Positions 15,970 through 63,911 of a stretch of DNA of 64,000 nt are shown here, piece by piece (the first letter of the stretch is position 1; every line of letters starts with the position of its first letter). A program made the translations under genes and the position numbers. Origin of the DNA: Omnitrophica WOR_2 bacterium RIFOXYA2_FULL_38_17 (lineage in GTDB: Bacteria > Omnitrophota > Gorgyraeia > Zapsychrales > Zapsychraceae). The notes under the pieces are model-generated. The model worked only from the letters and a program-made list of their open reading frames with translations. It was not told where the DNA came from and made no database searches. The DNA lies in assembly GCA_001805965.1 (NCBI GenBank), contig MHHG01000055.1, positions 3,680 to 67,679 of the forward strand. The letters run 5' to 3'.

Positions 15970-15978
15970 AATTATCCT

Positions 15979-36922: not shown

Positions 36923-36996
36923 CAGGCCTGGTAGGATTTGAACCTACAACCTTCGGTTTTGGAGACCGTCGCTCTGCCAGTTAGAGCTACAGGCCT
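36923..36996 (-). tRNA. tRNA-Trp (anticodon CCA)
   Basis: The manual cloverleaf has a 7-bp acceptor stem AGGCCTG/CAGGCCT, anticodon loop CTCCAAA, T-loop TTCAAAT and discriminator G. No CCA is encoded. Confidence 0.85.
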
Positions 36997-37237: not shown

Positions 37238-37310
<73 letters not shown>

Positions 37311-48444: not shown

Positions 48445-49860
48445 TTACAACTCAGAAGATACCTCAGGAGTGATAATAGTTGGCGTAATAAAGATCAACA
48501 AATCAGTTTTATCTACATCCTTAGATGTTTTGGTAAATAGCTTTCCCAATATCGGGATATCTCCTAAAAATGGCACCTTTTTCTTTACATCTACAGCTTT
48601 ATCCTTAACTAAACCGCCAATTACCAAAGTTTCTCCATCCTTTACCATTACTTTAGTAGAAGCTTGCTCAATGCTTAGTTTTGGAACTGCAGAACCACTT
48701 GCCGCATCTGTAACGTCACCTAAATTATCAGTTATACTTGGCTCAACATCAAGCGTAATAATCCCTGCAGCCAAGCTAACGTGCGGGGTAACTTTCAAAA
48801 CTATTCCTATCTTTTTATACTCCCAGCCTGATAACTGCCAACTTCCAGTTTCATCGTTAAAAAACTTCAATGGGTATGGGTGCTCCGTTCCCACATCAAT
48901 CCTTGCTTCATGATTATCCAACGTGACAATTCTAGGATTAGAAAGAATATTCGTATCAGTTCTTTCTGCTAACATTCTGAATACAGCTTGTAAATTAGCA
49001 AAACTAAGTGTTCCATTAGTAATTGCAGAAGCGGTTGATGTTACTCCGCCAGTATCTATATTGGGATTGATATATTTATTATCAATTACAGGAGGTGCGA
49101 ACGGAAATGTATGTGTTATGGAAGAGCCTGTTACACTGGCTTGCGTAGTCCATTCTATTCCTAGCTGTTCAGAATCATCTAAAACTGTCTCAATAATTTT
49201 ACTTTCAATTAAGACTTGTGGAGTAGTCGCATCCAAACCTTTTATAACCTTTGCGATTAAGACTAGCTTGCTTGCTGTATCAGTTACAATTAAAGTATTT
49301 GTTCTTTCATCAAAATTAACATTACCTCTTTCTGATTTCATTTTTTCAAGAGATTCAACGATCTCTGAAGCCCTGCCAAAATTAAGCATGAATATTTCTG
49401 TTTCTAAAGGCTCTTGTTCGGCAAGAAGCAATGAGTCCTCTCTTCTTTTCTTCATGTCTTCAATAGTAGTAACAACAATTATGTTGCCCTTTTGGTCATA
49501 CGCATATCCATATGTTTGCAAAATTACCTCAAGAGCCTGTTTCCAGGGAACATCCTTAAGCTGTATAGTTACAACGCCGATTACTTCAGGGCTCGTAACA
49601 ATATTTATACCGCTTTTAAAAGCAAGTATTTTCAAGACATTCCTGATATCGGCTTCTCGGAAATCCAAGCTTACGTCCCCTCCATCAGACATCATAACAT
49701 CATCTGCAGATTGAGAAGCTCCTTCAACTTCAGATCCAGCAACATTTTGTTTAGCAGGTATTTCTGATCCTTTTTGAGCAAAAACGCACTCAACTCCCAC
49801 AACGGAAATCATTATAAATATTCCTATGATTAGAAAAATCCCTATCTTTTTCCCAGACAT
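48445..49860 (-). CDS. pilQ: Type IV pilus secretin PilQ
   Basis: N-terminal signal/TM, N-domains and a C-terminal secretin domain (VPFLGDIPILGKLF). Confidence 0.85.
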   Translation of the reverse strand: MSGKKIGIFLIIGIFIMISVVGVECVFAQKGSEIPAKQNVAGSEVEGASQSADDVMMSDGGDVSLDFREADIRNVLKILAFKSGINIVTSPEVIGVVTIQLKDVPWKQALEVILQTYGYAYDQKGNIIVVTTIEDMKKRREDSLLLAEQEPLETEIFMLNFGRASEIVESLEKMKSERGNVNFDERTNTLIVTDTASKLVLIAKVIKGLDATTPQVLIESKIIETVLDDSEQLGIEWTTQASVTGSSITHTFPFAPPVIDNKYINPNIDTGGVTSTASAITNGTLSFANLQAVFRMLAERTDTNILSNPRIVTLDNHEARIDVGTEHPYPLKFFNDETGSWQLSGWEYKKIGIVLKVTPHVSLAAGIITLDVEPSITDNLGDVTDAASGSAVPKLSIEQASTKVMVKDGETLVIGGLVKDKAVDVKKKVPFLGDIPILGKLFTKTSKDVDKTDLLIFITPTIITPEVSSEL

Positions 49861-49861
49861 A

Positions 49862-50221
49862 TTATTCCTCCTTTTTTAACTGCAACTCAAAAATCTTGTT
49901 TCCCTTAATAAGATAGACCTTTTCACTTTTAATCTCATGAACAGTAAAGTCTCCTATCTTATCCTTAATCTTGACAATTTTACCGTTAATTATAACAAGA
50001 CTACTATCTCCATCACCTAACATCACACCCTCGAGAGATAGGTCAGAAATTGAAAGACTGTCATCAAAGTTCTCAATAATACCATCAGCGCTCACCAATG
50101 GCAACATCGGATCCCTTTTGCCCTGATCATCATATTTTAAAATATCTTCTTCGGAAAAAGAAACATTTACCGCAATAACGATCAGACAACAAACAATATT
50201 TATGATTTTAATTAACCGCAT
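49862..50221 (-). CDS. PilP-like pilus assembly protein (small secreted beta-domain protein)
   Basis: Signal peptide MRLIKIINIVCCLIVIAVNVSFS and a C-terminal pattern L..G...G......I.G..V..GD.I....V..I....V.L typical of PilP/GspC HR domains. It sits in the pilO-pilQ slot. Confidence 0.45.
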   Translation of the reverse strand: MRLIKIINIVCCLIVIAVNVSFSEEDILKYDDQGKRDPMLPLVSADGIIENFDDSLSISDLSLEGVMLGDGDSSLVIINGKIVKIKDKIGDFTVHEIKSEKVYLIKGNKIFELQLKKEE

Positions 50222-50232
50222 ACATTTTTTCC

Positions 50233-50835
50233 CTATTTTTTACCTTTTAACTCTTCATAAACAACAGCATCCAGTACAATCTCAACTGAATGTTTTTGCT
50301 CTCCCCTTGAAGATATAATGCCAAAAGAGCTGACTTTAAAAAATATGTCCCCGCGCTCAAGTTGGCTTAAAAATCTGCCAAAATCATGATAACCGCTTCT
50401 AGCCTTTATAAGTATAGGCAAACCATAATAACGCCTCTCATCATTCTCTAACAGGATTTTCTGATCTTGCACATCAGGCATGATCTGATCAATCTTAACT
50501 CCGTTATCATCAGCCATGCGAGAAATATTTTCCAGAATAAGAGGAACTTCCTCCTTGAATTTAAGCTTTGCATTTGATTTTGCAACATCCGCTCTTAATC
50601 TTTCAACTTGTACCTGATACTGTTTTGATCTTAAAATATCATCTTTAGCTTTGTTAATATCCTCGGAAAGCAAACGAATTTCCGGGCTTATCTTAGATAA
50701 AGAGGCAATCTGCGGCCTCATAAGAACAAAGTAATCTAAAAGGAAGACTGAAAATAATATGCCGCCCAAAATATAGTAGATAACTTTTTCATCTACACTT
50801 TCTATATAGGACGATATTTTGTTCTGCAATGTCAT
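50233..50835 (-). CDS. pilO: Type IV pilus assembly protein PilO-like
   Basis: Single N-terminal TM, coiled coil and C-terminal alpha/beta domain, in the position between pilN and pilP. Confidence 0.6.
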   Translation of the reverse strand: MTLQNKISSYIESVDEKVIYYILGGILFSVFLLDYFVLMRPQIASLSKISPEIRLLSEDINKAKDDILRSKQYQVQVERLRADVAKSNAKLKFKEEVPLILENISRMADDNGVKIDQIMPDVQDQKILLENDERRYYGLPILIKARSGYHDFGRFLSQLERGDIFFKVSSFGIISSRGEQKHSVEIVLDAVVYEELKGKK

Positions 50836-51428
50836 TATTTACCCACTCTAGACGTTATTAAAAAATCAGCAACATCTACCTTGTTAATCTTTCTCATTTG
50901 TATTGAACCTAACTCCAGATCCGTTAGGTCCGTTAAAAATTCTGCATCTTGTTTAAGATTTGCTGTAAATTTATGTACTCCTATCATCTCTTTATTCTGC
51001 CTGGAAATTGCACTACCCTCTACAAAAAAAGCATCTTCATTAAATGCTATCCTCCTCAACCAAACCCCCTTTGGAAGATTATCACTTAAAATATTCAGTT
51101 TCTGTGACCAAATAACCTTTTCCTCTTCCGTAAGTTTCTTTATTGCGCTTTGCTTGTTCTGAAGCATCCTAAGCTCACTAATAATAACATCAACTTTCTC
51201 TTTGTCAGGAACAATTCCTTCCCAAGATGCTTTTAATGTATTATGTTTTGCTAACTTAGAAACATTAATTGCAAGCAAAACAACATGCACAACAAATAGC
51301 AGTATAATCAGTCCTCCACCTAGCCCAATAACCACTTCCAAAGGCAGCTTAAATCCTCCCACGAAGAAATCCTTCTTCTTCTTTTTTCTTAAACGCATTG
51401 GAACTAAGTTTATATCAATTATATTCAT
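50835..51428 (-). CDS. pilN: Type IV pilus assembly protein PilN-like
   Basis: MNIIDINLVPMRLRKKKK then a TM helix, which is a PilN N-terminus. The start was placed at M9 of the ORF-track call. Confidence 0.6.
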   Translation of the reverse strand: MNIIDINLVPMRLRKKKKKDFFVGGFKLPLEVVIGLGGGLIILLFVVHVVLLAINVSKLAKHNTLKASWEGIVPDKEKVDVIISELRMLQNKQSAIKKLTEEEKVIWSQKLNILSDNLPKGVWLRRIAFNEDAFFVEGSAISRQNKEMIGVHKFTANLKQDAEFLTDLTDLELGSIQMRKINKVDVADFLITSRVGK

Positions 51429-52470
51429 ATAAAGCCAATCCAAAGGCAACACCTAAATTAAGGGCCTTTTTGTTAAGATCATCAACATCTATTCCTTTAG
51501 ACACTCCTAAAGCCTTAAGTGGATCCCACCTTTCAACTTGCATTTCTAAATTATCCCCTAAAACATCAACGATACCTTCTAATAAAGAGCCGCCCCCAGT
51601 TACTAATAATTTATCAACTTCTTTGCTTTTTTCCGTAGAAAAATAATCAATAGATAATCTTAATTCCTGGACAATATTCATAAGGGTCGATTCACAAGCA
51701 GCTTTTACTTCACTAACTCTTTTAGCTGGTTGACATTTTAATTTCTCAGCTTCTTCTAAACTAATGCCCAATGTATTGCTTATTCTCTTTGTAAAATCAG
51801 CACCTCCGACAAAAATATCTCGTGTAAATCTTGGTGATTTGTTAACAATGATAATAAACGTGCTAACAGACTCTCCTATATCCAACAATGCCACTGTTTG
51901 ATCTTTACCTTCATCTTCTTTTTCTAATGAAAAGTTCAAAGCATTGACCAATGCAGCTGGATTCAATCCAATAAAATCTGCCTGATATCCTAAGCTTGAA
52001 ATAAGCTGCATTCTCTGGTCAATCATCTCTTTCTTTGCAGCAGATGCCATAACAGCCATCTGCTTGCTCTTCTTATCACCATCCAGAATATAACAATCTG
52101 TATAAATTTGATCTTGCGAGAAAGGGAAATACTTATCAGCTTCTATAGAAAATGAGTTGCGCAAATCATCTATAAGCATTCTGGGCATATCTATATAACG
52201 TATCAGAGTCCCTTTTCCAAAAACAGCAGTATATATCGTATTTGGTGGATTCCTTAGTTGCGCGATTAATGTTTTTATTGCTTCGGCTATACCACTCTTT
52301 CTTGACGATTCAATTGCCCAGCTAACTAACTCATATTCATTATTCTCTTTCTTTATTTCAACTAACTTACAACTGTTTAAACCAATATCTATTCCAACAG
52401 CTGTACCCTTAGGCTTGTCAGGAAGAAATTTTTTTATTATGCCGAAATAATTATTTAGCAATGCATTCAT
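51415..52470 (-). CDS. pilM: Type IV pilus assembly ATPase-like protein PilM (actin fold)
   Basis: AVGIDIGLNSCKLVEI phosphate-1 motif and actin/FtsA-like fold. Confidence 0.85.
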   Translation of the reverse strand: MNALLNNYFGIIKKFLPDKPKGTAVGIDIGLNSCKLVEIKKENNEYELVSWAIESSRKSGIAEAIKTLIAQLRNPPNTIYTAVFGKGTLIRYIDMPRMLIDDLRNSFSIEADKYFPFSQDQIYTDCYILDGDKKSKQMAVMASAAKKEMIDQRMQLISSLGYQADFIGLNPAALVNALNFSLEKEDEGKDQTVALLDIGESVSTFIIIVNKSPRFTRDIFVGGADFTKRISNTLGISLEEAEKLKCQPAKRVSEVKAACESTLMNIVQELRLSIDYFSTEKSKEVDKLLVTGGGSLLEGIVDVLGDNLEMQVERWDPLKALGVSKGIDVDDLNKKALNLGVAFGLALYEYN

Positions 52471-52623: not shown

Positions 52624-52664
52624 TAAAAAAAGGAGAGGGCTTAATTAGCCCCCTCCTTTTAAAA
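52624..52664 (-). terminator. Rho-independent terminator downstream of pilA (bidirectional architecture)
   Basis: GGAGAGGGC-ttaatta-GCCCCCTCC (9-bp stem, one mismatch) is flanked by an A-run upstream and a T-run downstream on the plus strand. The minus strand shows hairpin plus TTTTTTT about 20 nt after the pilA stop. Confidence 0.7.
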
Positions 52665-52685: not shown

Positions 52686-53081
52686 TTATTGCTGACTTAA
52701 AACCCCACCAGTTGTAACTGTAAAATGTGTCGTTCCTGATGTTCCAAGAGTCATAGCATTTGCATCAAAGGTATAATAACCTGGAGCAAATGTACAGGCA
52801 TAAGTAAAACCTGATGTTGACTGACCACAATAAGCTGCATTTAGATAAGGTGGTGTTGCGCCGGTCAATGAAGCTTCATTTCCTGGATATACACCATTTG
52901 ATGATGTTTGAAACGTTTCTGCCGCTGTTGACATCGTTTTGAGCGTGCTCTGTGCTAGCGCATCATTTGCTGAGATCTTAGCTCTTAGCAAGTTTGGAAT
53001 AGCAATTGCTGCTAACAAAGCGATAATTGCGACTACGATCATAATTTCTACTAACGTAAAACCTTTTTGGCTCATTCTCAT
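52686..53081 (-). CDS. pilA: Type IVa major pilin (prepilin, class III signal peptide)
   Basis: MRMSQKG|FTLVEIMIVVAIIALLAAIAIPNL gives the G-1, F+1, E+5 prepilin peptidase/N-methylation motif. A C-terminal Cys pair suggests a D-region disulfide. GGAGG SD lies 6 nt upstream. Confidence 0.85.
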   Translation of the reverse strand: MRMSQKGFTLVEIMIVVAIIALLAAIAIPNLLRAKISANDALAQSTLKTMSTAAETFQTSSNGVYPGNEASLTGATPPYLNAAYCGQSTSGFTYACTFAPGYYTFDANAMTLGTSGTTHFTVTTGGVLSQQ

Positions 53082-53270: not shown

Positions 53271-53605
53271 TTCATTTATATACTCTTGCTTTGGCTGCTT
53301 TCGCACCAAAACAAAACATGGCTGAACAAAGACAGATTTTACCCACTCAATAATACCAACAATGGTTTTTTCCAATATGCGCATTTTTATCACAAGCACC
53401 TCTCAAAAAAAAATCCCACCCCATTATAAGGAGCAGGACTATTAGAATCCCTTTGTGGCAACTGGCTGTCCTATTTTCTCTTAGGACCCTATAGCTTTGT
53501 GCCCCATCCTTACGAATGGTTTACCATTTACACAACCAACCCAAACTTTCAGTTCAAGTATAACATCAAAAAAAATTATTGTCAAAAAAGAGGCATTTTA
53601 CAAAC

Positions 53606-54628
53606 TTACTTGTTTTTTATTGCCTCAATTTTTTTTTGAAAATCATACACTTTCTTTATTAATACCAAGTGTTCATTCTTGATCGCAGCCAAATTTTCAG
53701 TTAATTGACGCTCTTCAGCTTCTCCACCATCTAAATTCAATTTACTGTCCTTCAATTTCTCTTTAGCAATAGAAAGTACATTGTCAAGATTATCCTTTTG
53801 TTCATTTAAAGCCGCTATTTCCTTTAATAGCTCTTCTTTGCGACTTTCTCTTTCATTACTGACATTAGCAATTTCTTTTTGTATTTTGTCTTCTTCTCCT
53901 AAAATAATCTTAAGCTCGTCTTCAACTATCAACAATTGCTGCTTCAAAAGACTTCTTTTTTTACCGATTTCTTCTACTTCAGATACTGGTCGCATATTAG
54001 TCTCTGTAACTTTGGACAATTGTCTTTGCAATCCTTCAATCTCGTTTTCGCTTCTTTCGATTTGTTCAAGCACTTGTTTCTTAATACTGTCTTCTGTGCC
54101 TTTACTTTTTTTCATATCAAAATTATCAATCTTCATTTGAATATCAGCAATATCTTTACTGACTTTATCGATTGATTGCAGAACTTCTTTTTCTTTAACT
54201 TGCTTTACATCTAATTTCTTCTCTAAAATCTGTTGCTCTCTAACAATCTTACTAACATCATCAGTTAAGCTATTCGCATTTTTCTCAAAGAACATTAGCT
54301 CCTGTTCTTCAGCATCCATATCATCAAGGCTCGCGTTCTGTACTTTCCACTTCATTTTATCTTCTTCAAGACGTATTAACTCTGTTTTTAATGTCTTGAT
54401 ATTCTCACGAAGCTTTTCATTTTCAGAAACAAGCCATATATTCTTTTGTGCAACTTCTTGGGCGCTGTTTTTCAAACTTAACAAACTATACTCAAGAACT
54501 TTTCTTGCTGATAAATTAGCTCTTCTCTCTGCATGACAAAAATCGGCATTAACTTGAATAAATATTACAGTTAAAAATAAAGTTTTTACAATTGTCGTTC
54601 TACAAACAATCTTAGTTTTTTTAAACAT
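53606..54628 (-). CDS. Secreted long coiled-coil protein of unknown function (pil-locus associated)
   Basis: The 340-aa ORF has an N-terminal signal-like hydrophobic segment, then about 300 aa of E/K/L/Q-rich heptad-like sequence. I recognise no catalytic motifs. Confidence 0.5.
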   Translation of the reverse strand: MFKKTKIVCRTTIVKTLFLTVIFIQVNADFCHAERRANLSARKVLEYSLLSLKNSAQEVAQKNIWLVSENEKLRENIKTLKTELIRLEEDKMKWKVQNASLDDMDAEEQELMFFEKNANSLTDDVSKIVREQQILEKKLDVKQVKEKEVLQSIDKVSKDIADIQMKIDNFDMKKSKGTEDSIKKQVLEQIERSENEIEGLQRQLSKVTETNMRPVSEVEEIGKKRSLLKQQLLIVEDELKIILGEEDKIQKEIANVSNERESRKEELLKEIAALNEQKDNLDNVLSIAKEKLKDSKLNLDGGEAEERQLTENLAAIKNEHLVLIKKVYDFQKKIEAIKNK

Positions 54629-54651: not shown

Positions 54652-55857
54652 TTAGACAATTTGTGTAATATTCAATATAGGCATAAATAAAGCAATAACA
54701 ATAAAACCAATCACTATACCAAGAACACCTATGATCAAAGGCTCAATAATACTGGTCAAACCTTCAACGGCTGCGTCAACTTGATCATCATAAAATTCAG
54801 CTATTTTTAAAAGCATTTTTTCCATCTGGCCCGATTTCTCGCCAATACCGATCATCCTAGTGACCATAGGCGGAAATACTTTACTTTTGCTTAATGGTGT
54901 TGCAATACTTTCACCTTCGCGTACACAATTTTTTACATCTTCGACAACATCTTCAAGGACAGTGTTTCCTATAGTCTTACCAACTATATCTAGAGATTCA
55001 AGAATCGGAACACCGCTTTGTATAAGGGTAGCCAGCGTTCGACTAAAACGGCTAATCGCAACTTTACAAAAAAGCTCGCCAAAAAGAGGCATGTTCAGAA
55101 CAGCCCCATCTATAACACGAGCGCCTTTTGCCGTTCTATACCATCTTCCGATAAGAAAAACTACAAAAACAAAAAAACCAACAATCCAAATCAAATAACT
55201 CTTGAGCCCTTCACTCACTCCAATTAGCATTTGAGTCATAGCCGGCAATTCCCTATCAAAAGAATCATAAATGCCCGCAAAAGTGGGAACAACCTTAACT
55301 AATAAAATAATCGTAATAATTGTCGCCATTGATACAATTACTGAAGGATATATCAATGCGGATTTGACTTTACGTTGCAGTTTAAGCGATTTCTCCATAT
55401 ATGTGGATATGCGGTCTAATACTTGACTTAAAACACCCCCAGTCTCTCCAACTCTTACCATGTTTACAAAAAGAGTGTCAAAAACACTAGGGTGTTTATT
55501 AAAAGCAGCAGAAAGGCTTGCTCCATGCTGAATATCATCATAAACATTTGTAAGAACCTTTTGAAACAGCGGATGAGAAACCTGGTCCTTCAAAGCATCA
55601 ATACCCTGAAGTATTGGTATGCCTGCATCAACCATTGTAGCTAATTGTCTTGTAAAAATGACGATCTCATCAGGCTTTACTTTTTTTGATTGAAAAGAAG
55701 AGCCAGTAATCTTGGAATCCTTTACTTCAACAACCGAAATAATAATAAGCTTCTTTTTCCTTAAAGCTTCAATGACTGATTCTTTATTATCCGCAGCAAT
55801 CTTTCCGGTAACATTCCCTGATTCTGCATTCTTTGCAACATATTTAAAAGTTGCCAT
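54652..55857 (-). CDS. pilC: Type IV pilus inner-membrane platform protein PilC (GspF family)
   Basis: The 401-aa ORF has two T2SSF repeats and three TM segments. Confidence 0.9.
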   Translation of the reverse strand: MATFKYVAKNAESGNVTGKIAADNKESVIEALRKKKLIIISVVEVKDSKITGSSFQSKKVKPDEIVIFTRQLATMVDAGIPILQGIDALKDQVSHPLFQKVLTNVYDDIQHGASLSAAFNKHPSVFDTLFVNMVRVGETGGVLSQVLDRISTYMEKSLKLQRKVKSALIYPSVIVSMATIITIILLVKVVPTFAGIYDSFDRELPAMTQMLIGVSEGLKSYLIWIVGFFVFVVFLIGRWYRTAKGARVIDGAVLNMPLFGELFCKVAISRFSRTLATLIQSGVPILESLDIVGKTIGNTVLEDVVEDVKNCVREGESIATPLSKSKVFPPMVTRMIGIGEKSGQMEKMLLKIAEFYDDQVDAAVEGLTSIIEPLIIGVLGIVIGFIVIALFMPILNITQIV

Positions 55858-55940: not shown

Positions 55941-56399
55941 TTAATTTCCACCATAAAGATTATTCAAAGCATGATCAATTTCCATTCTAGTGGAAATAAA
56001 AGGTACTATTTCACAACTGGTATCTTGCTTTAATTCCTGAAGAACCGAAAAATCCAAAGGATTCGACATAGCAATACTTAAAATATTACCAACACAATCT
56101 AAAGGGACAACACAATACTTAAAAGCTATCTGCCTTGGGATAATATTCAAGACTTCCTGCTTTATATCATACTGATCAATTGCAATATAAGGAAGCTTAC
56201 ACTGGGCAGACAAAGCAGCAACAACGTCTTTCTCGCTTACAAATCCCAGAGTTGTTAGGATCTCCCCGATGAATCTCTTATCTTTCTTTTGAATATTCAA
56301 AGCCCGACTAAGCTGCTTCCTAACAACCATCTTTCGATTAAGCAGAATCTCTCCTAAGCGACCTTTTTTATTGACAAATATTCCAGAATCAGCAACCAT
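55941..56399 (-). CDS. Standalone T2SSE_N / MshEN-like domain protein (PilB N-terminal domain only, 152 aa)
   Basis: Aligns to the N-domains of both downstream PilB paralogues (LPYIAIDQYDI...IPRQIAFKYCVVPL...LSIAMSNPLD). Tandem motifs RLGEILLNRKMVVRKQLSRALNIQ and FIGEILTTLGFVSEKDVVAALSAQ are present. Confidence 0.6.
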   Translation of the reverse strand: MVADSGIFVNKKGRLGEILLNRKMVVRKQLSRALNIQKKDKRFIGEILTTLGFVSEKDVVAALSAQCKLPYIAIDQYDIKQEVLNIIPRQIAFKYCVVPLDCVGNILSIAMSNPLDFSVLQELKQDTSCEIVPFISTRMEIDHALNNLYGGN

Positions 56400-56413
56400 G
56401 GTCAGCCCCTTAC

Positions 56414-56432
56414 ATATCTGTTATCCAGATAT
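56414..56432 (-). promoter_or_regulatory. Inverted repeat ATATCTG-N5-CAGATAT immediately upstream of the standalone MshEN-like gene
   Basis: 7-5-7 perfect arms read directly from the sequence, about 15 nt upstream of the ATG at 56399, within a 197-nt intergenic region. Confidence 0.3.
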
Positions 56433-56596
56433 TTATTCTACCACTAAATATATTCTTTGAAACAAGAAACTTTGGTTTAGCAATATTCCAATAAAACAAA
56501 TATTTTTTGTGCTTACTTTATATTATTATTTCTTGAAACTAGTTTACATAACCTGCTAAAAATGTTTTTCTTTTTTTGAATTTATTCTAAATCACA

Positions 56597-58303
56597 TTAT
56601 TCATCCATAGCGACTCTTAAAACCTCTTCAAGAGTTATTAACCCAGAAACACATTTCTCGATAGCATCCTCCCAAATAGTCACCATTCCGTTAACCTCAC
56701 ACGCAAACCGTTTTATCTCATCGGATGAGCATCCCCTTAATAGCATCTCCTTGATCTCATCAGTTACCTCTAATACTTCCATCAAAGCCATTCTCCCAGA
56801 ATAGCCTGTACCATGACAAGCCTCACAACCTTTTCCATGATAGAAAACTGTATTGGGCTTGAATTTATAAGTCATCTTATCCAATACTTTCTTCGATATC
56901 TCAACTTTTTCTTTACAGCGTGTACAAATTTTCCTACATAGTCTTTGTGCATTTACCAGCACAAGGCTCGATGCAACCAAAAACGGCTCAACTCCCATAT
57001 CAACCAATCTTGTCAAAGTGCCGGCAGCATCATTTGTATGAAGGGTAGAAAAGACCAACTGCCCTGTTAATGATGCTTTCACTGCTATGTCAGCTGTTTC
57101 ATTATCACGAATCTCACCAACCATTACAATATCTGGGCTCTGTCGCAATATTGCCCTTAACCCCTCAGCAAAAGTCAATCCTATTTCAGGCCTAGCCTGA
57201 ATCTGTGTCAATCCCTCGATCAAATACTCAACCGGGTCCTCGACAGTAATGATGTTCTTATCCACTGTATTGAGCTCATTAATGATTGAGTATAAAGTTG
57301 TCGATTTGCCACTGCCCGTAGGGCCAGTGACCAAGAACATACCAAACGGTTTAACGATGCCATTCTTTAAAACAGCCAGAGACTTCTCAGAAATGCCTAA
57401 GCCATCAAGCCCAACAGTCAAATTACTTTTATCCAGAACACGCATGACAATTTTCTGCCCAAATGTTGTAGGCAATAAAGAAACGCGGAAATCAATTTCT
57501 TTTCCAGCGACTTTCATCTTAAAACGTCCGTCTTGAGGGACATAATTTGAAGTTATATCCAACCTGGACATTATCTTGATTCTTACGATAACGGCATTCT
57601 GGTTTTCCTTAGGCAAATTCAGGATATCTCTCAAAATACCATCTATTCTATAACGAACTCTGACGCCATCTTCCGCTGGTTCAATATGAATATCAGAAGC
57701 TTTCTGCCTTATTGCTTCTTTGACAATAAGATTGACCATTCGGATAACAGGGGCTTTCTCTCCGTCATCTGCAGGTCCACTGCTTCCATCTTCTTCTTGA
57801 TCCATGACTATTTCGAAATCATCTACCTGAATGTCCTGAGTAATATCAGTAACACTCACGCTTTCCGGAACGCCATAATAATTATCAATTGCCTTAATGA
57901 TCTCCGTATTTGTACTCATAACCACATCGATATCTTTGCCTGTGATACTTTTTAGGTCATCAGCGATAAAAACATCTAGCGGGTCTGCAAGCGCCACCGT
58001 AAGGGTGTTCTCAAGCAGTGAAAGAGGGATTATTTTATACTGCCTTGCTACCCGCTCTGGCACGATCTCTTGCAAATAAGGGTCGATCTTATATTTGCTT
58101 AAATTAATAAACGGGATATTTAGCTCTCTTACAAGAAGCATCAAAAGGTCGTCCTCCGCTATCAGCCCTTGTTCTATCAAAGCTTTATCAAGACCAATAT
58201 TCTTTCTCTTTTGCAATACAATAGCAGCATCAAGATCTTTTTTGCTGATCTGCTGAGTCTCAATAAGTGTATTCAAAATTTTATCTTTTAATGTCTTTGC
58301 CAC
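56597..58303 (-). CDS. pilB: Type IV pilus assembly ATPase PilB/GspE family, paralogue 1
   Basis: The 568-aa ORF has an N-terminal T2SSE_N domain, Walker A GPTGSGKST, Asp/His boxes and a tetracysteine CRKIC..C..C..CEACHGTG. It starts at a GTG with a 1-nt overlap onto the upstream stop. Confidence 0.9.
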   Translation of the reverse strand: MAKTLKDKILNTLIETQQISKKDLDAAIVLQKRKNIGLDKALIEQGLIAEDDLLMLLVRELNIPFINLSKYKIDPYLQEIVPERVARQYKIIPLSLLENTLTVALADPLDVFIADDLKSITGKDIDVVMSTNTEIIKAIDNYYGVPESVSVTDITQDIQVDDFEIVMDQEEDGSSGPADDGEKAPVIRMVNLIVKEAIRQKASDIHIEPAEDGVRVRYRIDGILRDILNLPKENQNAVIVRIKIMSRLDITSNYVPQDGRFKMKVAGKEIDFRVSLLPTTFGQKIVMRVLDKSNLTVGLDGLGISEKSLAVLKNGIVKPFGMFLVTGPTGSGKSTTLYSIINELNTVDKNIITVEDPVEYLIEGLTQIQARPEIGLTFAEGLRAILRQSPDIVMVGEIRDNETADIAVKASLTGQLVFSTLHTNDAAGTLTRLVDMGVEPFLVASSLVLVNAQRLCRKICTRCKEKVEISKKVLDKMTYKFKPNTVFYHGKGCEACHGTGYSGRMALMEVLEVTDEIKEMLLRGCSSDEIKRFACEVNGMVTIWEDAIEKCVSGLITLEEVLRVAMDE

Positions 58304-60072
58304 TACTTCTTCTTTTCCTCATCAGGTGATGTTAATCTCAAAACCTCTTCTATTGTTGTTAACCCATCTACTGCTTTCACCAAGCCATCTTCTCTCATAG
58401 TCCGCATACCTTCTTGACGTGCAACTTGTTTTATCTTTACTTCGCCTACCCGCGCCAAGACAGCCTCTTTCACTTTTTGGCTGAATACAAGGATTTCAGT
58501 GATACCAACCCGCCCCTTATAGCCAGTATTAAAACATTGCTTACATCCTTTTGGCCTCATAACTTCTATATTCTGTTTAGGATATAATTTATCAAGCCCA
58601 ACTTTTGAAGCTATCTCCGGAGTAACTATATAAGGCTCACAACATTTCGGGCAGACCTTTCTTAATAGCCTTTGGGCAATGATAGCCAACACAGAAGAAC
58701 ATATTAAAAATGGCTCAATACCCATATTCATCATACGGACTATTGAACCCGCAGCTGTTGTAGTGTGAAGAGAACTCAAAACAAGGTGTCCAGTCAAAGC
58801 AGCCTTAACCGCAATATCTAATGTTTCTTTGTCGCGGATCTCTCCTATCATGATAATATCCGGGTCTTGCCTGAGAATTGATCTTAGACTTGAAGAAAAA
58901 GTTAAGCCCATCTTTGCCTTTATATTAACTTGATTGACCCCTTTCATCTGGTACTCTACAGGGTCCTCAACCGTAACAATATTTTTTTCTGGAGAATCTA
59001 CATACTTTAGAATTGAATAAAGCGTTGTCGTCTTACCGCTTCCAGTGGGACCACAAGTTAAAATCAAGCCATGCGGCTTTACAGCGCAGTCCTTTAAGCG
59101 CTGCAAAGCAGTTGCTTCAAACCCTAAATTTTCAACATCAAGCACTGTTCCCTGCTGGTCCAAGACTCTCAACACAATTTTTTCGCCAACAGCAGTAGGC
59201 AAAACATTAACGCGAAAGTCAACCTCTCTGTCACCTGAAATTATCGTCTTAAACCTTCCATCTTGAGGCAACCTGTGTTCTGAAATATCTAAATTTGAAA
59301 TGACCTTTATTCTTGAAACCAATGGAAAATGCAACACTTTTGTCATTCGATCAATCTCTCGAATGACCCCATCAATCCTGTACCTGATGCGGACTGCTTT
59401 TTCTAATGGCTCTATGAACACATCGCTAGCTTTCGCAAACACTGCTTGCTGAATTATCGTGTCTGTTAACTTAATAATCGGCGCCTCGTCAGATATTGCC
59501 TCAACAGATGACTGCTCATCACTGTGTCCATCTTTAATTAATTCAAGGTCTTCAGTATCTCTAAAATCTTGAATGATCTCATCAAAGGTCTCATTATTTT
59601 TTTCCTGCTCTGGACTTTCCTGATCCTGCTCATCCTCATGCTTCAAATAATATTTCTCAATAGCTTTATGAATATCTGCAAACCTGCATATAATAGGAAT
59701 GATCATATAGCCTGTAAGAGCCTTAACATTATCTATTATAAATATGTTCAACGGATCCGCCATCGCGAGGGTCAGCTGATCTCCCAAGAGAGAAACAGGT
59801 ATAATTTGATATTTTAGTGCAATATCTTTTGGAATAGTTTGAATTACATCTGGCGAGATATTAAAACTAGCGATCTTAATTAAGGGAAGCTCAAGGCTTT
59901 CACTCAACACTTGGGTCAACTGGTCTTGACTCACAAAATTCATATCAACAAGTATCTTACTTAATTCTCCGCCTATTTTCTTTTGCTCAATTAACGCTTG
60001 CTCTAGCTCATTGGCGGTAATAAGTTCATCTCGAATAAGAATTTCTTTTAAGCGGTCTTTAAAAGATGCCAT
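58303..60072 (-). CDS. pilB: Type IV pilus assembly ATPase PilB/GspE family, paralogue 2
   Basis: The 589-aa ORF has an N-terminal T2SSE_N domain with RLKEILIRDELITANELEQALIEQ, an acidic linker, Walker A GPTGSGKTT and a tetracysteine CPKCC...CKQCFNTG. Confidence 0.9.
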   Translation of the reverse strand: MASFKDRLKEILIRDELITANELEQALIEQKKIGGELSKILVDMNFVSQDQLTQVLSESLELPLIKIASFNISPDVIQTIPKDIALKYQIIPVSLLGDQLTLAMADPLNIFIIDNVKALTGYMIIPIICRFADIHKAIEKYYLKHEDEQDQESPEQEKNNETFDEIIQDFRDTEDLELIKDGHSDEQSSVEAISDEAPIIKLTDTIIQQAVFAKASDVFIEPLEKAVRIRYRIDGVIREIDRMTKVLHFPLVSRIKVISNLDISEHRLPQDGRFKTIISGDREVDFRVNVLPTAVGEKIVLRVLDQQGTVLDVENLGFEATALQRLKDCAVKPHGLILTCGPTGSGKTTTLYSILKYVDSPEKNIVTVEDPVEYQMKGVNQVNIKAKMGLTFSSSLRSILRQDPDIIMIGEIRDKETLDIAVKAALTGHLVLSSLHTTTAAGSIVRMMNMGIEPFLICSSVLAIIAQRLLRKVCPKCCEPYIVTPEIASKVGLDKLYPKQNIEVMRPKGCKQCFNTGYKGRVGITEILVFSQKVKEAVLARVGEVKIKQVARQEGMRTMREDGLVKAVDGLTTIEEVLRLTSPDEEKKK

Positions 60073-60521
60073 TATTTTTGTTTATAGTATTTTTCAATGG
60101 ATTGTTTAATATCAGTAGTAGTGCTTACAAAGACCTGAACAATACATCCTGTCATAAGTTCAATATCTTCTGAAGCTTTTAGATTCAACGGGTCAGACAT
60201 TGCTATTGTTAAACTTTTACCTATCTTATCAATCGGAATAAGACAAAACTGCCTGCACACTTTTTCGGGGATCGCATTTATAACTTCATCATCAATTTCA
60301 TAATTCAGTAAGGGCAAATAAGGAAAGCCATACTGACATGTTATTGCCTGTGCAATATCTTTCTCTGTAGCAAAATTCAACTCAACAAGAACTTCACCTA
60401 TCAATCCACCATGCTTTTCCCTGTATTCCAGAGCCTCTTCTATTTGGGCATGATTTATAACTCCTCTTTCGATAAGAAGTTCTCCCAGTTTTTTATGTGT
60501 ATCTCTATTGAATTGTTTCAT
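60072..60521 (-). CDS. Standalone T2SSE_N / MshEN-like domain protein (149 aa)
   Basis: KLGELLIERGVINHAQIEEALEYR and LIGEVLVELNFATEKDIAQAITCQ tandem motifs, then PYLPLLNYEID...IPEKVCRQFCLIPI...LTIAMSDPLN matching PilB N-domains. ATGA overlap with pilB-2. Confidence 0.6.
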   Translation of the reverse strand: MKQFNRDTHKKLGELLIERGVINHAQIEEALEYREKHGGLIGEVLVELNFATEKDIAQAITCQYGFPYLPLLNYEIDDEVINAIPEKVCRQFCLIPIDKIGKSLTIAMSDPLNLKASEDIELMTGCIVQVFVSTTTDIKQSIEKYYKQK

Positions 60522-60700
60522 TGAAATCTAAAACTGATTTTTATAGTGTTATTAAGCAGAGTAATTCTACTATACTTATAAAAACATAACAATTAGTAAT
60601 TAACAGTTTATTAAAAATATACCAAAATTCTTAACGCTCGTTAAATTCAAAATATCTCTTTTTTTGTGTAAAATAAACTAAAAACATCCTACAACTTTTA

Positions 60701-61069
60701 TTATCCGGTCAATCTTTTAATGCTGGAAAGCAGTTCCTCAGGATTGTAAGGCTTCATTAAATATTCATCAGCGCCCGCTTCTTTCCCCCAGAACTTGTCG
60801 CTCTCCGAAGTTTTAGCGGTTAAAAGTATAACCGGAATATGTGCTGTTTCAAGGCCATCTTTTATCATACGACAAACCTTATATCCGTTTGGAGCGGGCA
60901 TCATAACATCCAAAATTACCAGGTCTGGATGATATTCTTTGGTTAAACTTAAAGCCTCTTCGCCATTGGTTCCAGTGATTATTTCATATCCGTTCGCTTT
61001 TAAACGCAAACTTATCAGTTTAACAATCTCAGGCTCATCATCAATAATTAATATCTTTTTTCCCGACAT
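60701..61069 (-). CDS. Single-domain CheY-like response regulator (receiver only)
   Basis: ILIIDDEPEI...DLVILDVMMP...LLTAK receiver signature (phospho-acceptor Asp in LDVMMP). 122 aa, no output domain. Confidence 0.85.
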   Translation of the reverse strand: MSGKKILIIDDEPEIVKLISLRLKANGYEIITGTNGEEALSLTKEYHPDLVILDVMMPAPNGYKVCRMIKDGLETAHIPVILLTAKTSESDKFWGKEAGADEYLMKPYNPEELLSSIKRLTG

Positions 61070-61146
61070 ATTTTCCTTTCAGAAACATATGAATTATCAA
61101 CACCTGCATTTATAAAAAGCTGTCAAGTGTTGATACAGAATGATGA

Positions 61147-61521
61147 TCATTTTTCCTTTAAAATATGTTCAATAATATCTATCCGGCTAACAATTCCAAC
61201 AACCTTTTTTTCCTTTATTACAGGCACTCTCTTTATATTCTTTTTAACCAGCAACCTACTGACATCTTCAACCAAATCATCCTCACTAATACTAATAACA
61301 TCCTTCGAATAAAACTCCTTAACGAGAGCATCCTTTGACCCAAGAAAATCATATGCAACTAAAAAATCCTTTTCAGTAACTACTCCGACAGCCTCCAGAT
61401 TATCATTAACAACTATTAGACCGCTTATATTATTTGACAAAAGAAGCCGCATCCCTTCTTCAATCTTAGCCTCTGGCTTTATAGTTACTACGTTAGTGGT
61501 CATAATATCCTTTGCTTGCAT
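61147..61521 (-). CDS. CBS-pair domain protein
   Basis: The 124-aa ORF has two CBS motifs (DIMTTNVVTIKPEAKIEEG... and VPVIKEKKVVGIVSRIDII). Confidence 0.8.
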   Translation of the reverse strand: MQAKDIMTTNVVTIKPEAKIEEGMRLLLSNNISGLIVVNDNLEAVGVVTEKDFLVAYDFLGSKDALVKEFYSKDVISISEDDLVEDVSRLLVKKNIKRVPVIKEKKVVGIVSRIDIIEHILKEK

Positions 61522-61577
61522 AATTTACCTCCAATGATCTTAAAAAGTTTTTTTAAAAACAGCATTAAATATGTAAG

Positions 61578-63911
61578 TTAGGTCAATCTTTCAATTAAAT
61601 CTATTACAACATTGATGTTGCCAGACTTTTCTATTATTGGGATTTCACCAAGTTCACCACATTCTTCCTTAACCTCACTTAAACGTTTATCTGTAAGAAC
61701 TATTATCGGGATCGCTGCGTACTGAGAATTCTGTTTTAATCTTCCCAAAACCTCATATCCGTTCATATTTGGCATGACAATATCAAGCAATATTAAATCT
61801 GTTTTTTTTGTTTTTAAATAATCCAGCGCCTCTTCACCATCAAAAACCTGTTCTGTAATAATGCCGTAGCGGCCCAATCTTGTTGAAAGCAATCTTCCGA
61901 TCTGCGGATGATCATCAACAATCAATACTTTTTTCTTTTTTTCGCATTCTTCTAAAGCCCTTATTGCTAATTCATTCTTATTCCGACCATCTTTTGGATG
62001 GAAAGCCAATCCAAACTTTACTTTTATCCCCAAGTCATCTTTCATCATGGCAATTCTCTCACGCAAAGCGCCCTTTATTTTCTCTAATAAGACCATCCCG
62101 CCTTTTTTATCTGTATCAGCAAGGGCAATATGAATTGTATCTTTATCATATAAGATATATTTATCTGTTGTCCTTGAAAGCGATCTTGACAATATTTCAA
62201 AAGCAATATTTATGATTTTATTAGCAAATGCTTCTCCATACTTGGTCATGACCATATCAATGCCCATAAAACGAGCAACAATAAAAACAGAATCCTTATT
62301 CTTTATTTTTGTCTCTGAAAATATCCAATCAACATCATGATCAAATTTTTGCTTTAATTTCAATTTGCTTGGAAGAGTAAAAAAGAAAGTTGCACCCTTA
62401 CCTGTCTCGCTCTCTGCCCAGATTTGCCCGTCATGAAGGTCAATTAAAGATTTGCTTATAGTCAAGCCTAAGCCCGTACCTTTTATTCCCGGGCCATGTA
62501 TTCTTCCAAATTGGGTAAATTTATCAAAAAGCTTTGGGATATTCTCCTTTTCAATCCCCAAACCCGTATCTGAAATCCTAAACAGGCATCCTCCATCCTG
62601 CTCATTGATCTCAATCTCTATTTCGCCACCTTCAGGTGTAAATTTATGAGCATTATTCAATAAATTTGTAACGACCTGTATTATTTTATCTTCATCAAGA
62701 AATATAAACATTTCCTTTTCTGGGAATATTGCTCTTATCTTTTGCTGCTTTGTATCTAAAACCTTTCTATATTCATCCGTCAATTTATTTATTATTGCTT
62801 TTAGGTCAACAATGGTCTTTCTAAGAGTGATCTCTCCGGATTCTATTTTAGAAACATCTAATAGATCATTCACAATTGTTTGTAACCTGTGAAGATTGTC
62901 CTTTGAAGCATTTAAAAGCTCTTTTTGCTGTTCATTAATTCCGCCAACAACGCCATCTAAAATAAGGTTTATGCACTCAGTTGATATCGCCAGCGGAGTC
63001 CTTAACTCATGGGAAACAGTGGAAACAAAATCAGATTTCAATTGATCTAATTTTTTTAGTTCCAAATTCTTTCTTTCAAGATTCTTATACAGATTCTTAA
63101 TTGATTCGTTAGTTTTTTGTAGCCCCCAGGATTGTTGTTCCAGCTTATCTCTAGCATTATCTAAATCTTTTTCAGCACTTTTTTTTGCTGTAATATCACT
63201 AAATGATTCGATACCGCCAATAATATGGCCCTCATCATTTTTTAAGATGTCAGAATTCTTAAGAATAGTTATTCTTTCACCATTTTTTCTCTTAATAGAA
63301 CACTCGGTCTCAACAATCGGCTTCTCTACATCATTACTATAAAGCCCGCAGTAAGACTCACAGGGATATTCAGCGAATATATCGCATTTTTTACCAATAA
63401 CCTCTTGGGCGGTATATCCTGTAAGCTCTTCGGCCTTTTTATTCCAGCCAGTTACAACTTTGTTTTCATCAACAGTAAATACAGCGCTCGGAACAACTCT
63501 AAAAATGCGCTCCAAATCCTTATTTGCTTTAATTACAGCTTCCTCAGCATGCTTATACACTGTTATGTCGCTCATTAAATGAATTGAGCCTAATAAATCT
63601 TTATTATCATCAAAAAGAGGTGCCGTTCGGATAAAGAACCATTTATTAAAAATAGGCTCCCAATGCTCCTTTTGTTCATATTTTTTTGAGTCCTTTAGAA
63701 CACAGTATGGACAATCAGATATAGGCTGGTTCTTAGAATGTATGACCTCATAACATTTCTTGTTCAATAAAGCACTTTCATCCTTGCCAATAAACTTTAA
63801 AAAAGCCTTGTTCACTTTCTTTATTCCATTCTCTAGATCAAGAATAAAGATGAAATCTTCTAAAACATCAAAAGCTGGAGACCAAAACCGATTATAATCA
63901 AGATTTTTCAT
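61578..63911 (-). CDS. Hybrid sensor histidine kinase: two PAS domains, HisKA-HATPase, degenerate GGDEF-like domain, C-terminal receiver
   Basis: H-box VSHELRTPL; G-boxes ISDTGLGI and GTGLGLTI. The inter-domain segment IDMVMTKYGEAFANKII...RTTDKYILYDKDTIHIALADTD aligns to GGDEF, with GGDEF replaced by DKDTI and RxxD five residues upstream. C-terminal VLIVDDHP...LLDIVMP receiver. Confidence 0.8.
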   Translation of the reverse strand: MKNLDYNRFWSPAFDVLEDFIFILDLENGIKKVNKAFLKFIGKDESALLNKKCYEVIHSKNQPISDCPYCVLKDSKKYEQKEHWEPIFNKWFFIRTAPLFDDNKDLLGSIHLMSDITVYKHAEEAVIKANKDLERIFRVVPSAVFTVDENKVVTGWNKKAEELTGYTAQEVIGKKCDIFAEYPCESYCGLYSNDVEKPIVETECSIKRKNGERITILKNSDILKNDEGHIIGGIESFSDITAKKSAEKDLDNARDKLEQQSWGLQKTNESIKNLYKNLERKNLELKKLDQLKSDFVSTVSHELRTPLAISTECINLILDGVVGGINEQQKELLNASKDNLHRLQTIVNDLLDVSKIESGEITLRKTIVDLKAIINKLTDEYRKVLDTKQQKIRAIFPEKEMFIFLDEDKIIQVVTNLLNNAHKFTPEGGEIEIEINEQDGGCLFRISDTGLGIEKENIPKLFDKFTQFGRIHGPGIKGTGLGLTISKSLIDLHDGQIWAESETGKGATFFFTLPSKLKLKQKFDHDVDWIFSETKIKNKDSVFIVARFMGIDMVMTKYGEAFANKIINIAFEILSRSLSRTTDKYILYDKDTIHIALADTDKKGGMVLLEKIKGALRERIAMMKDDLGIKVKFGLAFHPKDGRNKNELAIRALEECEKKKKVLIVDDHPQIGRLLSTRLGRYGIITEQVFDGEEALDYLKTKKTDLILLDIVMPNMNGYEVLGRLKQNSQYAAIPIIVLTDKRLSEVKEECGELGEIPIIEKSGNINVVIDLIERLT

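Follow-up and report, generated by a model that had tools for sequence, protein, structure and literature searches.

The stretch of DNA analysed here, referred to as the window, comprises 64,000 nucleotides of contig MHHG01000055.1 (assembly GCA_001805965.1, positions 3,680 to 67,679) from Omnitrophica WOR_2 bacterium RIFOXYA2_FULL_38_17. It contains the type IVa pilus cluster of an Omnitrophota bacterium. In this cluster, two adjacent extension ATPases, PilB1 and PilB2, are accompanied by two small proteins, MshEN-A and MshEN-B, each consisting of a free-standing MshEN domain, a fold through which cyclic di-GMP (c-di-GMP) reaches other pilus motors. The pilin gene of the same cluster is preceded by a predicted c-di-GMP riboswitch.

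All genes of the cluster lie on the minus strand and are given here in their reading order. A hybrid sensor histidine kinase (61578-63911), in which Pfam recognizes PAS, HisKA and HATPase_c domains, a marginal GGDEF and a C-terminal REC, is followed by a 124-residue CBS-pair protein (61147-61521; PF00571 in two stretches, E = 1e-28) and a 122-residue receiver-only CheY-like protein (60701-61069; PF00072, E = 7e-28), whose phospho-acceptor Asp, Thr and Lys can be read directly from the translation. Then come MshEN-A (149 residues, 60072-60521), PilB1 (589 residues, 58303-60072) and PilB2 (568 residues, 56597-58303, with a GTG start), both ATPases carrying Pfam MshEN and T2SSE domains (T2SSE at 463 and 436 bits, respectively), MshEN-B (152 residues, 55941-56399) and the platform protein PilC (401 residues, 54652-55857; T2SSF in two stretches, E = 1.5e-66). 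The listing of open reading frames (ORFs) and Pfam agree on this co-directional block of eight genes and on the domains assigned to them in the original prediction, which had been made from the letters of the window. PilC belongs to the block as claimed, but falls outside the interval of 55941-63911 that had been given for it.

Beyond PilC, a 340-residue protein that looks like a coiled coil, has a hydrophobic N-terminus and matches no Pfam family (53606-54628) is separated from the pilin gene by a gap of 524 bp. Within this gap are a promoter-like site (TTGACA-17-TATACT with a TG extension, 53557-53585), which is a pattern match only, with 11 of 12 positions agreeing in a consensus scan, a c-di-GMP-I (GEMM-I) type aptamer (53453-53534; Rfam clan CL00126) and, 12 nt after the aptamer, an intrinsic-terminator-like hairpin with a U9 run (53403-53440) as its putative expression platform, all on the minus strand. 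The gene that follows encodes a major type IV pilin of 131 residues (52686-53081; Pfam N_methyl) with the prepilin N-terminus KGFTLVEIMIVVAIIALLAAIAIPNL, and a terminator stands after it (52628-52660). The cluster continues with PilM (51415-52470), PilN (50835-51452), PilO (50233-50835), a 119-residue protein in the position of PilP (49862-50221) and the PilQ secretin (48445-49860); PilM, PilN, PilO and PilQ are assigned from the Pfam families on the orthologous genes and from phmmer synteny.

PF05157 spans MshEN-A and MshEN-B as a whole domain and is the only family found on either (69.5 and 62.3 bits against a cut-off of 23.1 bits); the same profile matches the N-domains of MshE, PilF and PilB in the Protein Data Bank (PDB). 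Both proteins contain two 24-residue motifs joined by a 5-residue spacer. In MshEN-A these are KLGELLIERGVINHAQIEEALEYR (residues 11-34), EKHGG and LIGEVLVELNFATEKDIAQAITCQ (residues 40-63), and in MshEN-B RLGEILLNRKMVVRKQLSRALNIQ (residues 14-37), KKDKR and FIGEILTTLGFVSEKDVVAALSAQ (residues 43-66). AlphaFold2 models, with predicted local distance difference test scores (pLDDT) of 88 for MshEN-A and 89.7 for MshEN-B, consist of a four-helix N-subdomain and an alpha/beta C-subdomain. The top Foldseek match of both in the PDB is 5HTL, the N-domain of Vibrio cholerae MshE with c-di-GMP (template modelling score 0.80-0.85 for MshEN-A and 0.79-0.85 for MshEN-B; root-mean-square deviation 2.1-2.5 Å), followed by the GSPII-A and GSPII-B domains of Thermus PilF (6EJF, 8PDK, 9G1W) and the Xanthomonas citri PilB N-domain in complex with PilZ (7LKM, 7LKO). 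The small ORFs are genuine free-standing MshEN proteins, as had been proposed.

The ratio of nonsynonymous to synonymous substitution rates (dN/dS), computed against two orthologous loci, is 0.04 and 0.07 for MshEN-A. This is purifying selection, with values as low as those of the ATPases and the platform protein (0.04 and 0.03 for PilB1, 0.05 and 0.04 for PilB2, 0.05 for PilC). The corresponding values are 0.17 and 0.29 for MshEN-B, 0.10-0.20 for the coiled-coil-looking protein and 0.11 for the hybrid kinase.

A protein of Omnitrophica WOR_2 bacterium GWF2_38_59 matches MshEN-B at 100% identity, and full-length orthologues exist at 78% and 67%. The contigs that carry these two orthologues (loci L001 and L004) have exactly the order of the window: rodA, kinase, CBS protein, receiver, MshEN-A, PilB1, PilB2, MshEN-B and PilC, with PilQ and RNase G further on. 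The identical order in related genomes, at protein identities of 66-94%, means that the arrangement is not due to chance.

The family of MshEN-A extends well beyond these relatives. It comprises at least 1782 homologues, the best 120 of which are all 147-162 residues long and 67-93% identical to the window protein. A scan with one genome per species places relatives in 539 genomes, and the best 80 of these 539 are all metagenome-assembled genomes of Omnitrophota, some with records titled 'uncultured Planctomycetales'. A phmmer-based synteny survey of ~80 Omnitrophota loci retrieved via MshEN-A finds the succession MshEN-A, PilB1, PilB2 in every locus whose contig has room for it. Of 62 loci, 34 have MshEN-B between PilB2 and PilC, and in the remaining 28 these two genes are only 21-240 bp apart. 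The proposed bracketing of the ATPases by free-standing MshEN modules is accordingly conserved on one side, with MshEN-A upstream of PilB1, but not on the other, where MshEN-B is optional. PilC is conserved downstream of PilB2 or MshEN-B, pbp2 and rodA are conserved upstream neighbours of the locus, and the coiled-coil-looking protein after PilC has phmmer matches in ~25 loci. This last protein evolves faster than its neighbours, being 58-74% identical to its two orthologues. Overall, the conserved core order is MshEN-A, PilB1, PilB2, an optional MshEN-B, PilC, the coiled-coil protein, a c-di-GMP-I riboswitch, pilin, PilMNO, a small protein and PilQ. In some relatives (L088:6930-7994 and L091), a PilT-like ATPase is encoded directly upstream of MshEN-A.

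As a control, a metagenome scan was seeded with generic PilB motifs. Among the matches listed, 79 loci were usable and only four of them (L090, L091, L092 and L122), all of the Omnitrophota type, have a small MshEN ORF followed by two PilB genes. MshEN-A is present in 4/4 of the Omnitrophota-type loci among these matches that were retrieved via PilB rather than via MshEN-A. The ~75 other loci listed have a single PilB, usually followed by pilT and pilC, and three have PilB-PilT-PilB; a free-standing MshEN ORF occurs in none of these ~75. Because the control loci lack the small MshEN ORF and the tandem PilB pair, the combination of MshEN-A with a dual PilB is specific to the Omnitrophota lineage and not a general property of pilB loci.

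The residues by which an MshEN domain holds its ligand were described by Wang et al. (PMC5013675), who identified two 24-residue motifs, RLGxxLLxxGLLxxxxLxxxLxxQ, joined by five residues. The backbone amide of Gly3 contacts the guanine, the Leu residues form stacking clusters and Gln24 contacts the ribose-phosphate; the V. cholerae MshE variants G11L and G40I show poor, if any, binding. Neissner et al. (PMC11731258) found Lys or Leu at position 1 to be compatible with 6 nM binding in Thermus PilF GSPII-B (K167, L196), GSPII-A being a non-binder, and extended the consensus to (R/K/L)LG....

We took a census of these motifs across the Omnitrophota loci, which for Gly3 covered 82 MshEN-A, 35 MshEN-B, 74 PilB1 and 67 PilB2 sequences. 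In the free-standing domains, Gly3 is retained almost without exception (motif 1 and motif 2: 81/82 and 82/82 in MshEN-A, 35/35 and 35/35 in MshEN-B). Gln24 is present in 72/82 and 82/82 of MshEN-A and in 35/35 and 35/35 of MshEN-B. The hydrophobic positions 2, 17 and 21, where Leu, Ile or Val form the triangular clusters, are at least 95% conserved. Position 1 is K and L in the window's MshEN-A, which fits the extended consensus and matches PilF GSPII-B, and R and F in the window's MshEN-B; family-wide it is Q/H/K and L in MshEN-A and L/R/F and F/Y in MshEN-B. The ATPases, in contrast, have lost the essential glycines from their own N-domains. PilB1 carries K/Q and S at the Gly3 positions (Gly in 0/74 and 4/74) and G/S at Gln24 of motif 2, whereas PilB2 carries I/L and D/E (Gly in 0/67 and 2/67) and Glu. 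In the window the motifs begin RLKEIL... and ELSKIL... in PilB1, and KILNTL... and GLDKAL... in PilB2.

Since Gly3 is kept in the free domains and lost in both ATPase N-domains, the number of candidate sensors is two and not four. The original prediction had counted four copies of a c-di-GMP-binding fold around the motor. The fold is indeed present four times, but across ~70 loci the two copies attached to PilB1 and PilB2 are without the binding residues, and the notion that all four act as sensors was abandoned on the strength of the census. We also considered whether the ATPase N-domains regain the motif where MshEN-B is absent, as compensation, and rejected this; they are degenerate everywhere in the census. 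Judged by these residues, the N-domains of PilB1 and PilB2 are very probably blind to c-di-GMP, and MshEN-A and MshEN-B are plausible candidate receptors.

The small proteins are closely tied to the ATPases at the level of the genes. In the window, the MshEN-A stop shares one base with the PilB1 start, and the GTG start of PilB2 shares one base with the PilB1 stop. Across loci, the gap from MshEN-A to PilB1 is mostly -1 to +8 nt, with comparably short junctions between PilB1 and PilB2.

A search of 1.84 billion cluster representatives returned 21,352 clusters that contain MshEN, among them many single-domain proteins of 145-180 residues with good double motifs and several fusions. In one of these, P0134 (765 residues), a domain sharing 45% identity with MshEN-A is followed by an ATPase sharing 45% identity with PilB1. 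The glycines are present in the outer domain and missing from the degenerate inner one, which is also the pattern of the split arrangement. P0135 combines REC, three MshEN domains and T2SSE, mirroring the window's order of receiver, MshEN-A and PilB1, while P0126 and P0127 have four MshEN domains and T2SSE. The fusions serve as 'Rosetta-stone' evidence and suggest that MshEN-A, as a subunit detached from the PilB1 motor, would work physically with PilB. Further proteins found in this search have five to seven tandem MshEN domains in some cases (P0129, P0136, P0164, P0217 and P0159 are those listed). Six Pfam MshEN stretches are fused to a family-2 glycosyltransferase in P0129, and P0159 joins MshEN with PilZ and an adhesin-like C-terminus. 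This indicates an MshEN repertoire that is wide and mostly unstudied.

Both ATPases have the make-up of PilB/GspE enzymes, including an atypical Walker B with the catalytic Glu. Walker A, Walker B, Asp box, arginine fingers and the zinc-binding tetracysteine are invariant in 72 PilB1 and 65 PilB2 orthologues, and the sole exception among the family motifs is the first His of the His box in PilB2. This box reads TGQ in 65/65 PilB2 compared with TGH in 72/72 PilB1 (in the window TGQLVFSTLH, with TGQ at residues 413-415), and the control PilBs whose His box was read, among the matches listed, are all TGH. The changed residue is the equivalent of H413 in Geobacter metallireducens PilB, which packs against T411 at the inter-subunit interface (PMC5424180); the His that contacts the gamma-phosphate, equivalent to H420, is kept. 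PilB2 is thus probably a stable, active paralogue with altered coupling between chains.

The aptamer in the pilin leader lies outside the coordinates of the original prediction, which overlooked it. Its best Rfam model is RF03167 (61.5 bits against a gathering score of 59). The orthologous elements score 59.9-64.1 bits with RF03167 and 58, 39.8 and 37.7 bits with RF01051 (gathering score 35). RF03167 carries the label 'c-di-GMP-I-GGC variant', which we do not adopt: the GGC consensus has G at the position of A47 of the V. cholerae Vc2 riboswitch, the elements here have A in 44/44, and some orthologues match RF01051. On its defining nucleotide the predicted aptamer is a canonical c-di-GMP-I element, and the GGC label reflects the outcome of competition between models.

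A covariance model that we built from six copies was used to search 70 loci and finds 46 aptamers in 44 of them, all on the strand of the pilus genes. In the alignment, 95.4% of cells are paired, compared with 31-49% in slid controls, and nine pairs show compensatory changes. None of 500 shuffles reaches the observed covariation values, although the alignment was fitted to the model and so leans towards structure. The nucleotides of Vc2 that contact c-di-GMP are G20, A47 and C92 (PMC4744006); by the Rfam alignment and the same source, they correspond to G10, A37 and C77 of the window aptamer. The equivalent of G20 is conserved in 46/46 cases, A47 in 44/44, C92 in 44/46 and the tertiary-contact residue C44 in 44/46.

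A pilin gene whose product has the N-terminus GFTLVEIMIVVAIIALLAAIAIPNL begins 190-420 nt beyond the riboswitch in 40 of 45 cases. An ORF of ~46 residues after the terminator was considered as the regulated gene and set aside; in contrast to the conserved pilin gene, its position and length vary among the other loci. Of 42 distinct aptamers, 38 have a terminator-like hairpin with a U-run behind them, in no case overlapping P1, and the predicted fold lets aptamer and terminator coexist. The riboswitch is independent evidence for c-di-GMP as a signal in these organisms and for the predicted response of the locus to it. Two tandem c-di-GMP-I aptamers stand upstream of one pilin gene at L068:15753-15850 and 15940-16037, and L029 has two weak partial aptamer matches. 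At its mature N-terminus, FTLVEIMIVVAIIALLAAIAIPNL, the pilin hardly varies within the phylum, and several loci carry at least two pilin genes in series.

The kinase had been described as a sensor with a degenerate GGDEF domain that retains an I-site, and as far as the sequence goes this description holds. Its Pfam match is marginal (24.8 bits against a cut-off of 23.8), and alignment with the Thermotoga diguanylate cyclase 4URG places RTTD on the I-site RRSD and DKDTI on GGDEF. The D/N/D positions for binding of GTP and metal are not conserved relative to 4URG. The RxxD five residues before the GGDEF position is RTTD, RTTD and RSID in three kinase orthologues and is a candidate I-site. The kinase does not, however, belong to the conserved part of the pilus module. 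The trio of kinase, CBS protein and receiver was seen only in the closest relatives (L001, L002, L004 and L007), where it fills the slot between rodA and MshEN-A as a lineage-specific insertion.

In other loci this slot holds either nothing or, in 33 of them, a HAMP-GAF-GGDEF-like gene directly upstream of MshEN-A (for example L020:6512-7948). As a local diguanylate cyclase the latter was rejected, with an active site that reads GDHEF, DDHEF or AEDEF, the N/D residues lost and no RxxD. No similarity between the pseudo-GGDEF of the kinase and the GAF-GGDEF gene, of the kind expected from a common origin, was detected by phmmer at E up to 10. The slot of MshEN-B is also used by other genes. At L082:11919-12815 it is occupied by a REC-GGDEF protein with an intact RCVD...GGEEF, whose start overlaps the PilB2 stop, and at L087:12078-13151 by a REC-HD-GYP protein with an intact HHERYDGAGYP.

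Taken together, these features point to a motor with two ATPases that would be controlled by c-di-GMP via detached sensor subunits, combined with a riboswitch on the pilin gene, a reading to which we give a probability of roughly 0.55. According to this model, the two paralogous PilB ATPases would extend the pilus, and their own N-terminal MshEN-fold domains would no longer bind c-di-GMP. The sensing role would have passed to the free-standing MshEN proteins, of which a locus has one or two; these would be co-translated with the ATPases, dock on them and correspond, in split form, to the additional GSPII/MshEN domains at the N-terminus of PilF-type ATPases. The level of c-di-GMP would act through these proteins to set the activity or engagement of the motor. 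In parallel, the c-di-GMP-I riboswitch with its terminator, an OFF-like architecture, would set the supply of pilin. The PAS hybrid kinase, CBS protein and CheY-like receiver would be a further input, added upstream in the window's lineage only. From the data above we infer that MshEN-A and MshEN-B bind c-di-GMP and dock on PilB1 and PilB2, as well as the riboswitch's polarity and the sign of the regulation.

A more elaborate version, which we consider rather unlikely, envisages a hetero-oligomeric or two-stage motor made of PilB1 and the His-box variant PilB2, with MshEN-A serving PilB1 and MshEN-B serving PilB2, such that c-di-GMP picks the ATPase that engages while the riboswitch throttles pilin supply.

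Several observations weigh against detached c-di-GMP sensors and their proposed role. Position 10 is K or N instead of Gly in motif 2 of MshEN-A (72/82) and in motif 1 of MshEN-B (28/35). Position 1 is Q or H in most MshEN-A and F or Y in motif 2 of MshEN-B, outside the published R/K/L consensus, and the relaxed pattern of Wang et al. is passed in both halves by no census sequence. The window's own MshEN-A has Arg, not Gln, at position 24 of motif 1, a substitution that the relaxed pattern permits. The most conserved stretch of MshEN-A, TEKDIAQALTCQYGFPYLPL, runs past the ligand motif and could reflect a protein interface alone. The argument for an interaction between MshEN and PilB is drawn from gene order, tight junctions and fusions. 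Because the terminator follows the aptamer without overlapping P1, the polarity of the riboswitch looks like OFF by secondary-structure reasoning. The degenerate GAF-GGDEF proteins, finally, give no evidence for local synthesis of c-di-GMP.

The main rival is that the free-standing proteins act without a ligand, as adaptors or decoys. As adaptors, a tentative possibility that we place on the unlikely side, they would be nucleotide-independent structural subunits that connect the hexamers of PilB1 and PilB2 or set their order on PilM/PilC, or that replace an N1 docking lost by the ATPase N-domains, the motif residues being kept only as the core of the four-helix bundle. Many motif positions are indeed core hydrophobics (PMC5013675), both proteins are off consensus at positions 1 and 10, and the strongest conservation of MshEN-A extends into the linker and C-subdomain (QYGFPYLPL..NYEID). 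MshEN folds are also known to dock other proteins, PilZ on the X. citri PilB N-domain being an example (7LKM, 7LKO), and in XpsE the fold occurs without binding c-di-GMP. However, the residues that distinguish binders, Gly3 with its backbone amide on the guanine and Gln24 on the ribose-phosphate, are not core residues, and they are retained in the free domains but lost in the ATPase N-domains of the same fold in the same genomes. This selective retention argues against a ligand-independent role. The locus is, moreover, otherwise wired to c-di-GMP, by the riboswitch and by the REC-GGEEF and REC-HD-GYP proteins found in the MshEN-B slot.

As decoys or inhibitors, the small proteins would mimic the PilB N-domain and compete for docking on PilM, PilN or PilC, selecting an ATPase or blocking extension with or without ligand. 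This is improbable. MshEN-A and MshEN-B do share the fold of the PilB N-domain, and control of PilB by small proteins is precedented by PilZ/FimX (review PMC11656802). MshEN-A is also nearer to canonical PilB N-domains than are those of PilB1 and PilB2, an A2 profile scoring 120 bits against Geobacter PilB, and an OFF-like riboswitch would allow c-di-GMP to be anti-pilus here. The Acinetobacter baylyi protein CpiA is reportedly a motor inhibitor, another case of small-protein control of PilB. Yet translational coupling to the target, equally strong constraint and universal retention alongside it are not what one expects of an inhibitor, and the fused homologues, which carry an MshEN-A-like domain in cis on a PilB1-like ATPase, fit a subunit better than a competitor.

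Given the non-canonical position 1, which is Q/H/L/F/Y and not Arg, the free-standing domains might instead sense another nucleotide, such as 3'3'-cyclic GMP-AMP (cGAMP) or a further cyclic dinucleotide, and the MshEN domain of V. cholerae can also bind cGAMP (PMC5013675). This alternative seems quite improbable to us. Replacement of Arg by K or L raises the affinity for c-di-GMP in PilF GSPII-B (PMC11731258). The riboswitch of the same locus has G at the G20-equivalent position in 46/46 aptamers. cGAMP-selective GEMM-I variants carry A there.

That the small ORFs descend from a third pilB as pseudogenized remnants, or are N-termini detached from the neighbouring pilB genes, as their homology to PilB N-domains and their location next to pilB genes might suggest, can practically be dismissed: each ATPase has a complete N-domain of its own, the small ORFs are full length at a constant 147-162 residues in over 1700 homologues, their dN/dS is 0.04-0.29, their AlphaFold2 models are confident, complete domains, and no ATPase remnant lies 3' of either, the MshEN-A stop overlapping the PilB1 start and MshEN-B being followed by 83 bp and then PilC.

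Detached c-di-GMP sensors on a dual-ATPase motor would have counterparts, each differing in some respect, in known systems. Several MshEN-fold domains also serve one extension motor in Thermus thermophilus PilF, where only some bind c-di-GMP. PilF carries three N-terminal GSPII/MshEN domains on one ATPase, whereas the Omnitrophota domains are separate polypeptides, the copy attached to the ATPase is degenerate and there are two ATPases; according to PMC11731258, multiple GSPII domains, including the triple arrangement, had been reported only in Deinococcus-Thermus. V. cholerae MshE, Myxococcus xanthus PilB and Clostridium perfringens PilB2 belong to the same family and share the tandem 24-residue motif with its 5-residue spacer and the pilus motor as output (PMC5013675, PMC11656802). 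In these proteins the sensor is the ATPase's own N-domain, whereas in the Omnitrophota loci the motif is found only on free-standing proteins, Gly3 and Gln24 having been lost in cis.

In the PilB-PilZ-FimX system of Xanthomonas and Pseudomonas, c-di-GMP reaches PilB in trans via small proteins on the PilB N-domain (7LKM, 7LKO; PMC8389850). There the adaptor has a PilZ fold and the sensor an EAL domain, whereas the candidate sensor in the window is itself an MshEN domain. A. baylyi is a known case of a single type IV pilus with two extension ATPases, PilB and TfpB, which possibly divide initiation and processivity between them (PMC11656802). PilB1 and PilB2 differ from this pair in being adjacent, tightly coupled paralogues, with an invariant H-to-Q change in PilB2 and accompanying MshEN proteins.

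The aptamer keeps the fold, the G20, A47 and C92 nucleotides and the C44 contact of the GEMM-I RNAs Vc1 and Vc2 of V. cholerae (PMC4744006). Relative to known pilus riboswitches, it has an OFF-like polarity and shares its locus with MshEN protein modules. The pilin gene pilA1 of Clostridioides difficile likewise has a c-di-GMP riboswitch in its leader, which belongs to class II and is an ON switch.

In the searchable literature we found no description of a free-standing MshEN protein acting with PilB, or of an Omnitrophota pilus motor. All parts of the locus belong to known families, and the layout, conserved across the phylum, appears to be undescribed. If the more elaborate version with a two-stage or hetero-oligomeric motor is correct, its exchangeable MshEN subunits would give a secretion ATPase a modular sensor acting in trans, an architecture not described so far. 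Control of type IV pili by c-di-GMP is known mainly via the N-domain of the ATPase (MshE, Myxococcus PilB, PilF) or via PilZ/FimX adaptors, and the Omnitrophota would show a third solution. Since the sensor would be separated from the motor in nature, the locus is of interest to the fields of type IV pili and c-di-GMP alike. The mechanical action of MshEN on the PilB hexamer is poorly understood (review PMC11656802), and a naturally 'split' system, in which sensor and motor can be purified and titrated separately, offers a way to address it.

For annotation, over 1700 'hypothetical' Omnitrophota proteins of 150 residues can be treated as MshEN-type candidate c-di-GMP receptors, and the N-domains of Omnitrophota PilB proteins should not be counted as c-di-GMP receptors. 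On the same grounds, c-di-GMP signalling and pilus regulation would be conserved traits of the Omnitrophota, an uncultured and poorly understood group. Omnitrophota are ultra-small bacteria thought to be host-dependent or predatory, and their pili may mediate host contact.

Outside the cluster, the retraction ATPase PilT (351 residues, 4722-5777, minus strand) is recognized by a T2SSE domain without an N-domain and by the motif AIRNLIRE, and lies ~50 kb from the pilus motor genes, as the original prediction had noted. The protein in the PilP position gives a sub-threshold match to CdsD_C (24.7 bits against 27) and is kept in close relatives. Housekeeping genes surround the pilus cluster, with rodA upstream in relatives and RNase G, L21, Obg, rpoBC and ribosomal proteins downstream. 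Two tRNA genes are found by Rfam on the minus strand (36923-36996 and 37238-37310), and every ORF of at least 150 residues with a plausible function in the 64 kb is on this strand as well. The GC content is ~36%, and the GC skew is uniform across all 64 kb, ranging from -0.18 to -0.33.

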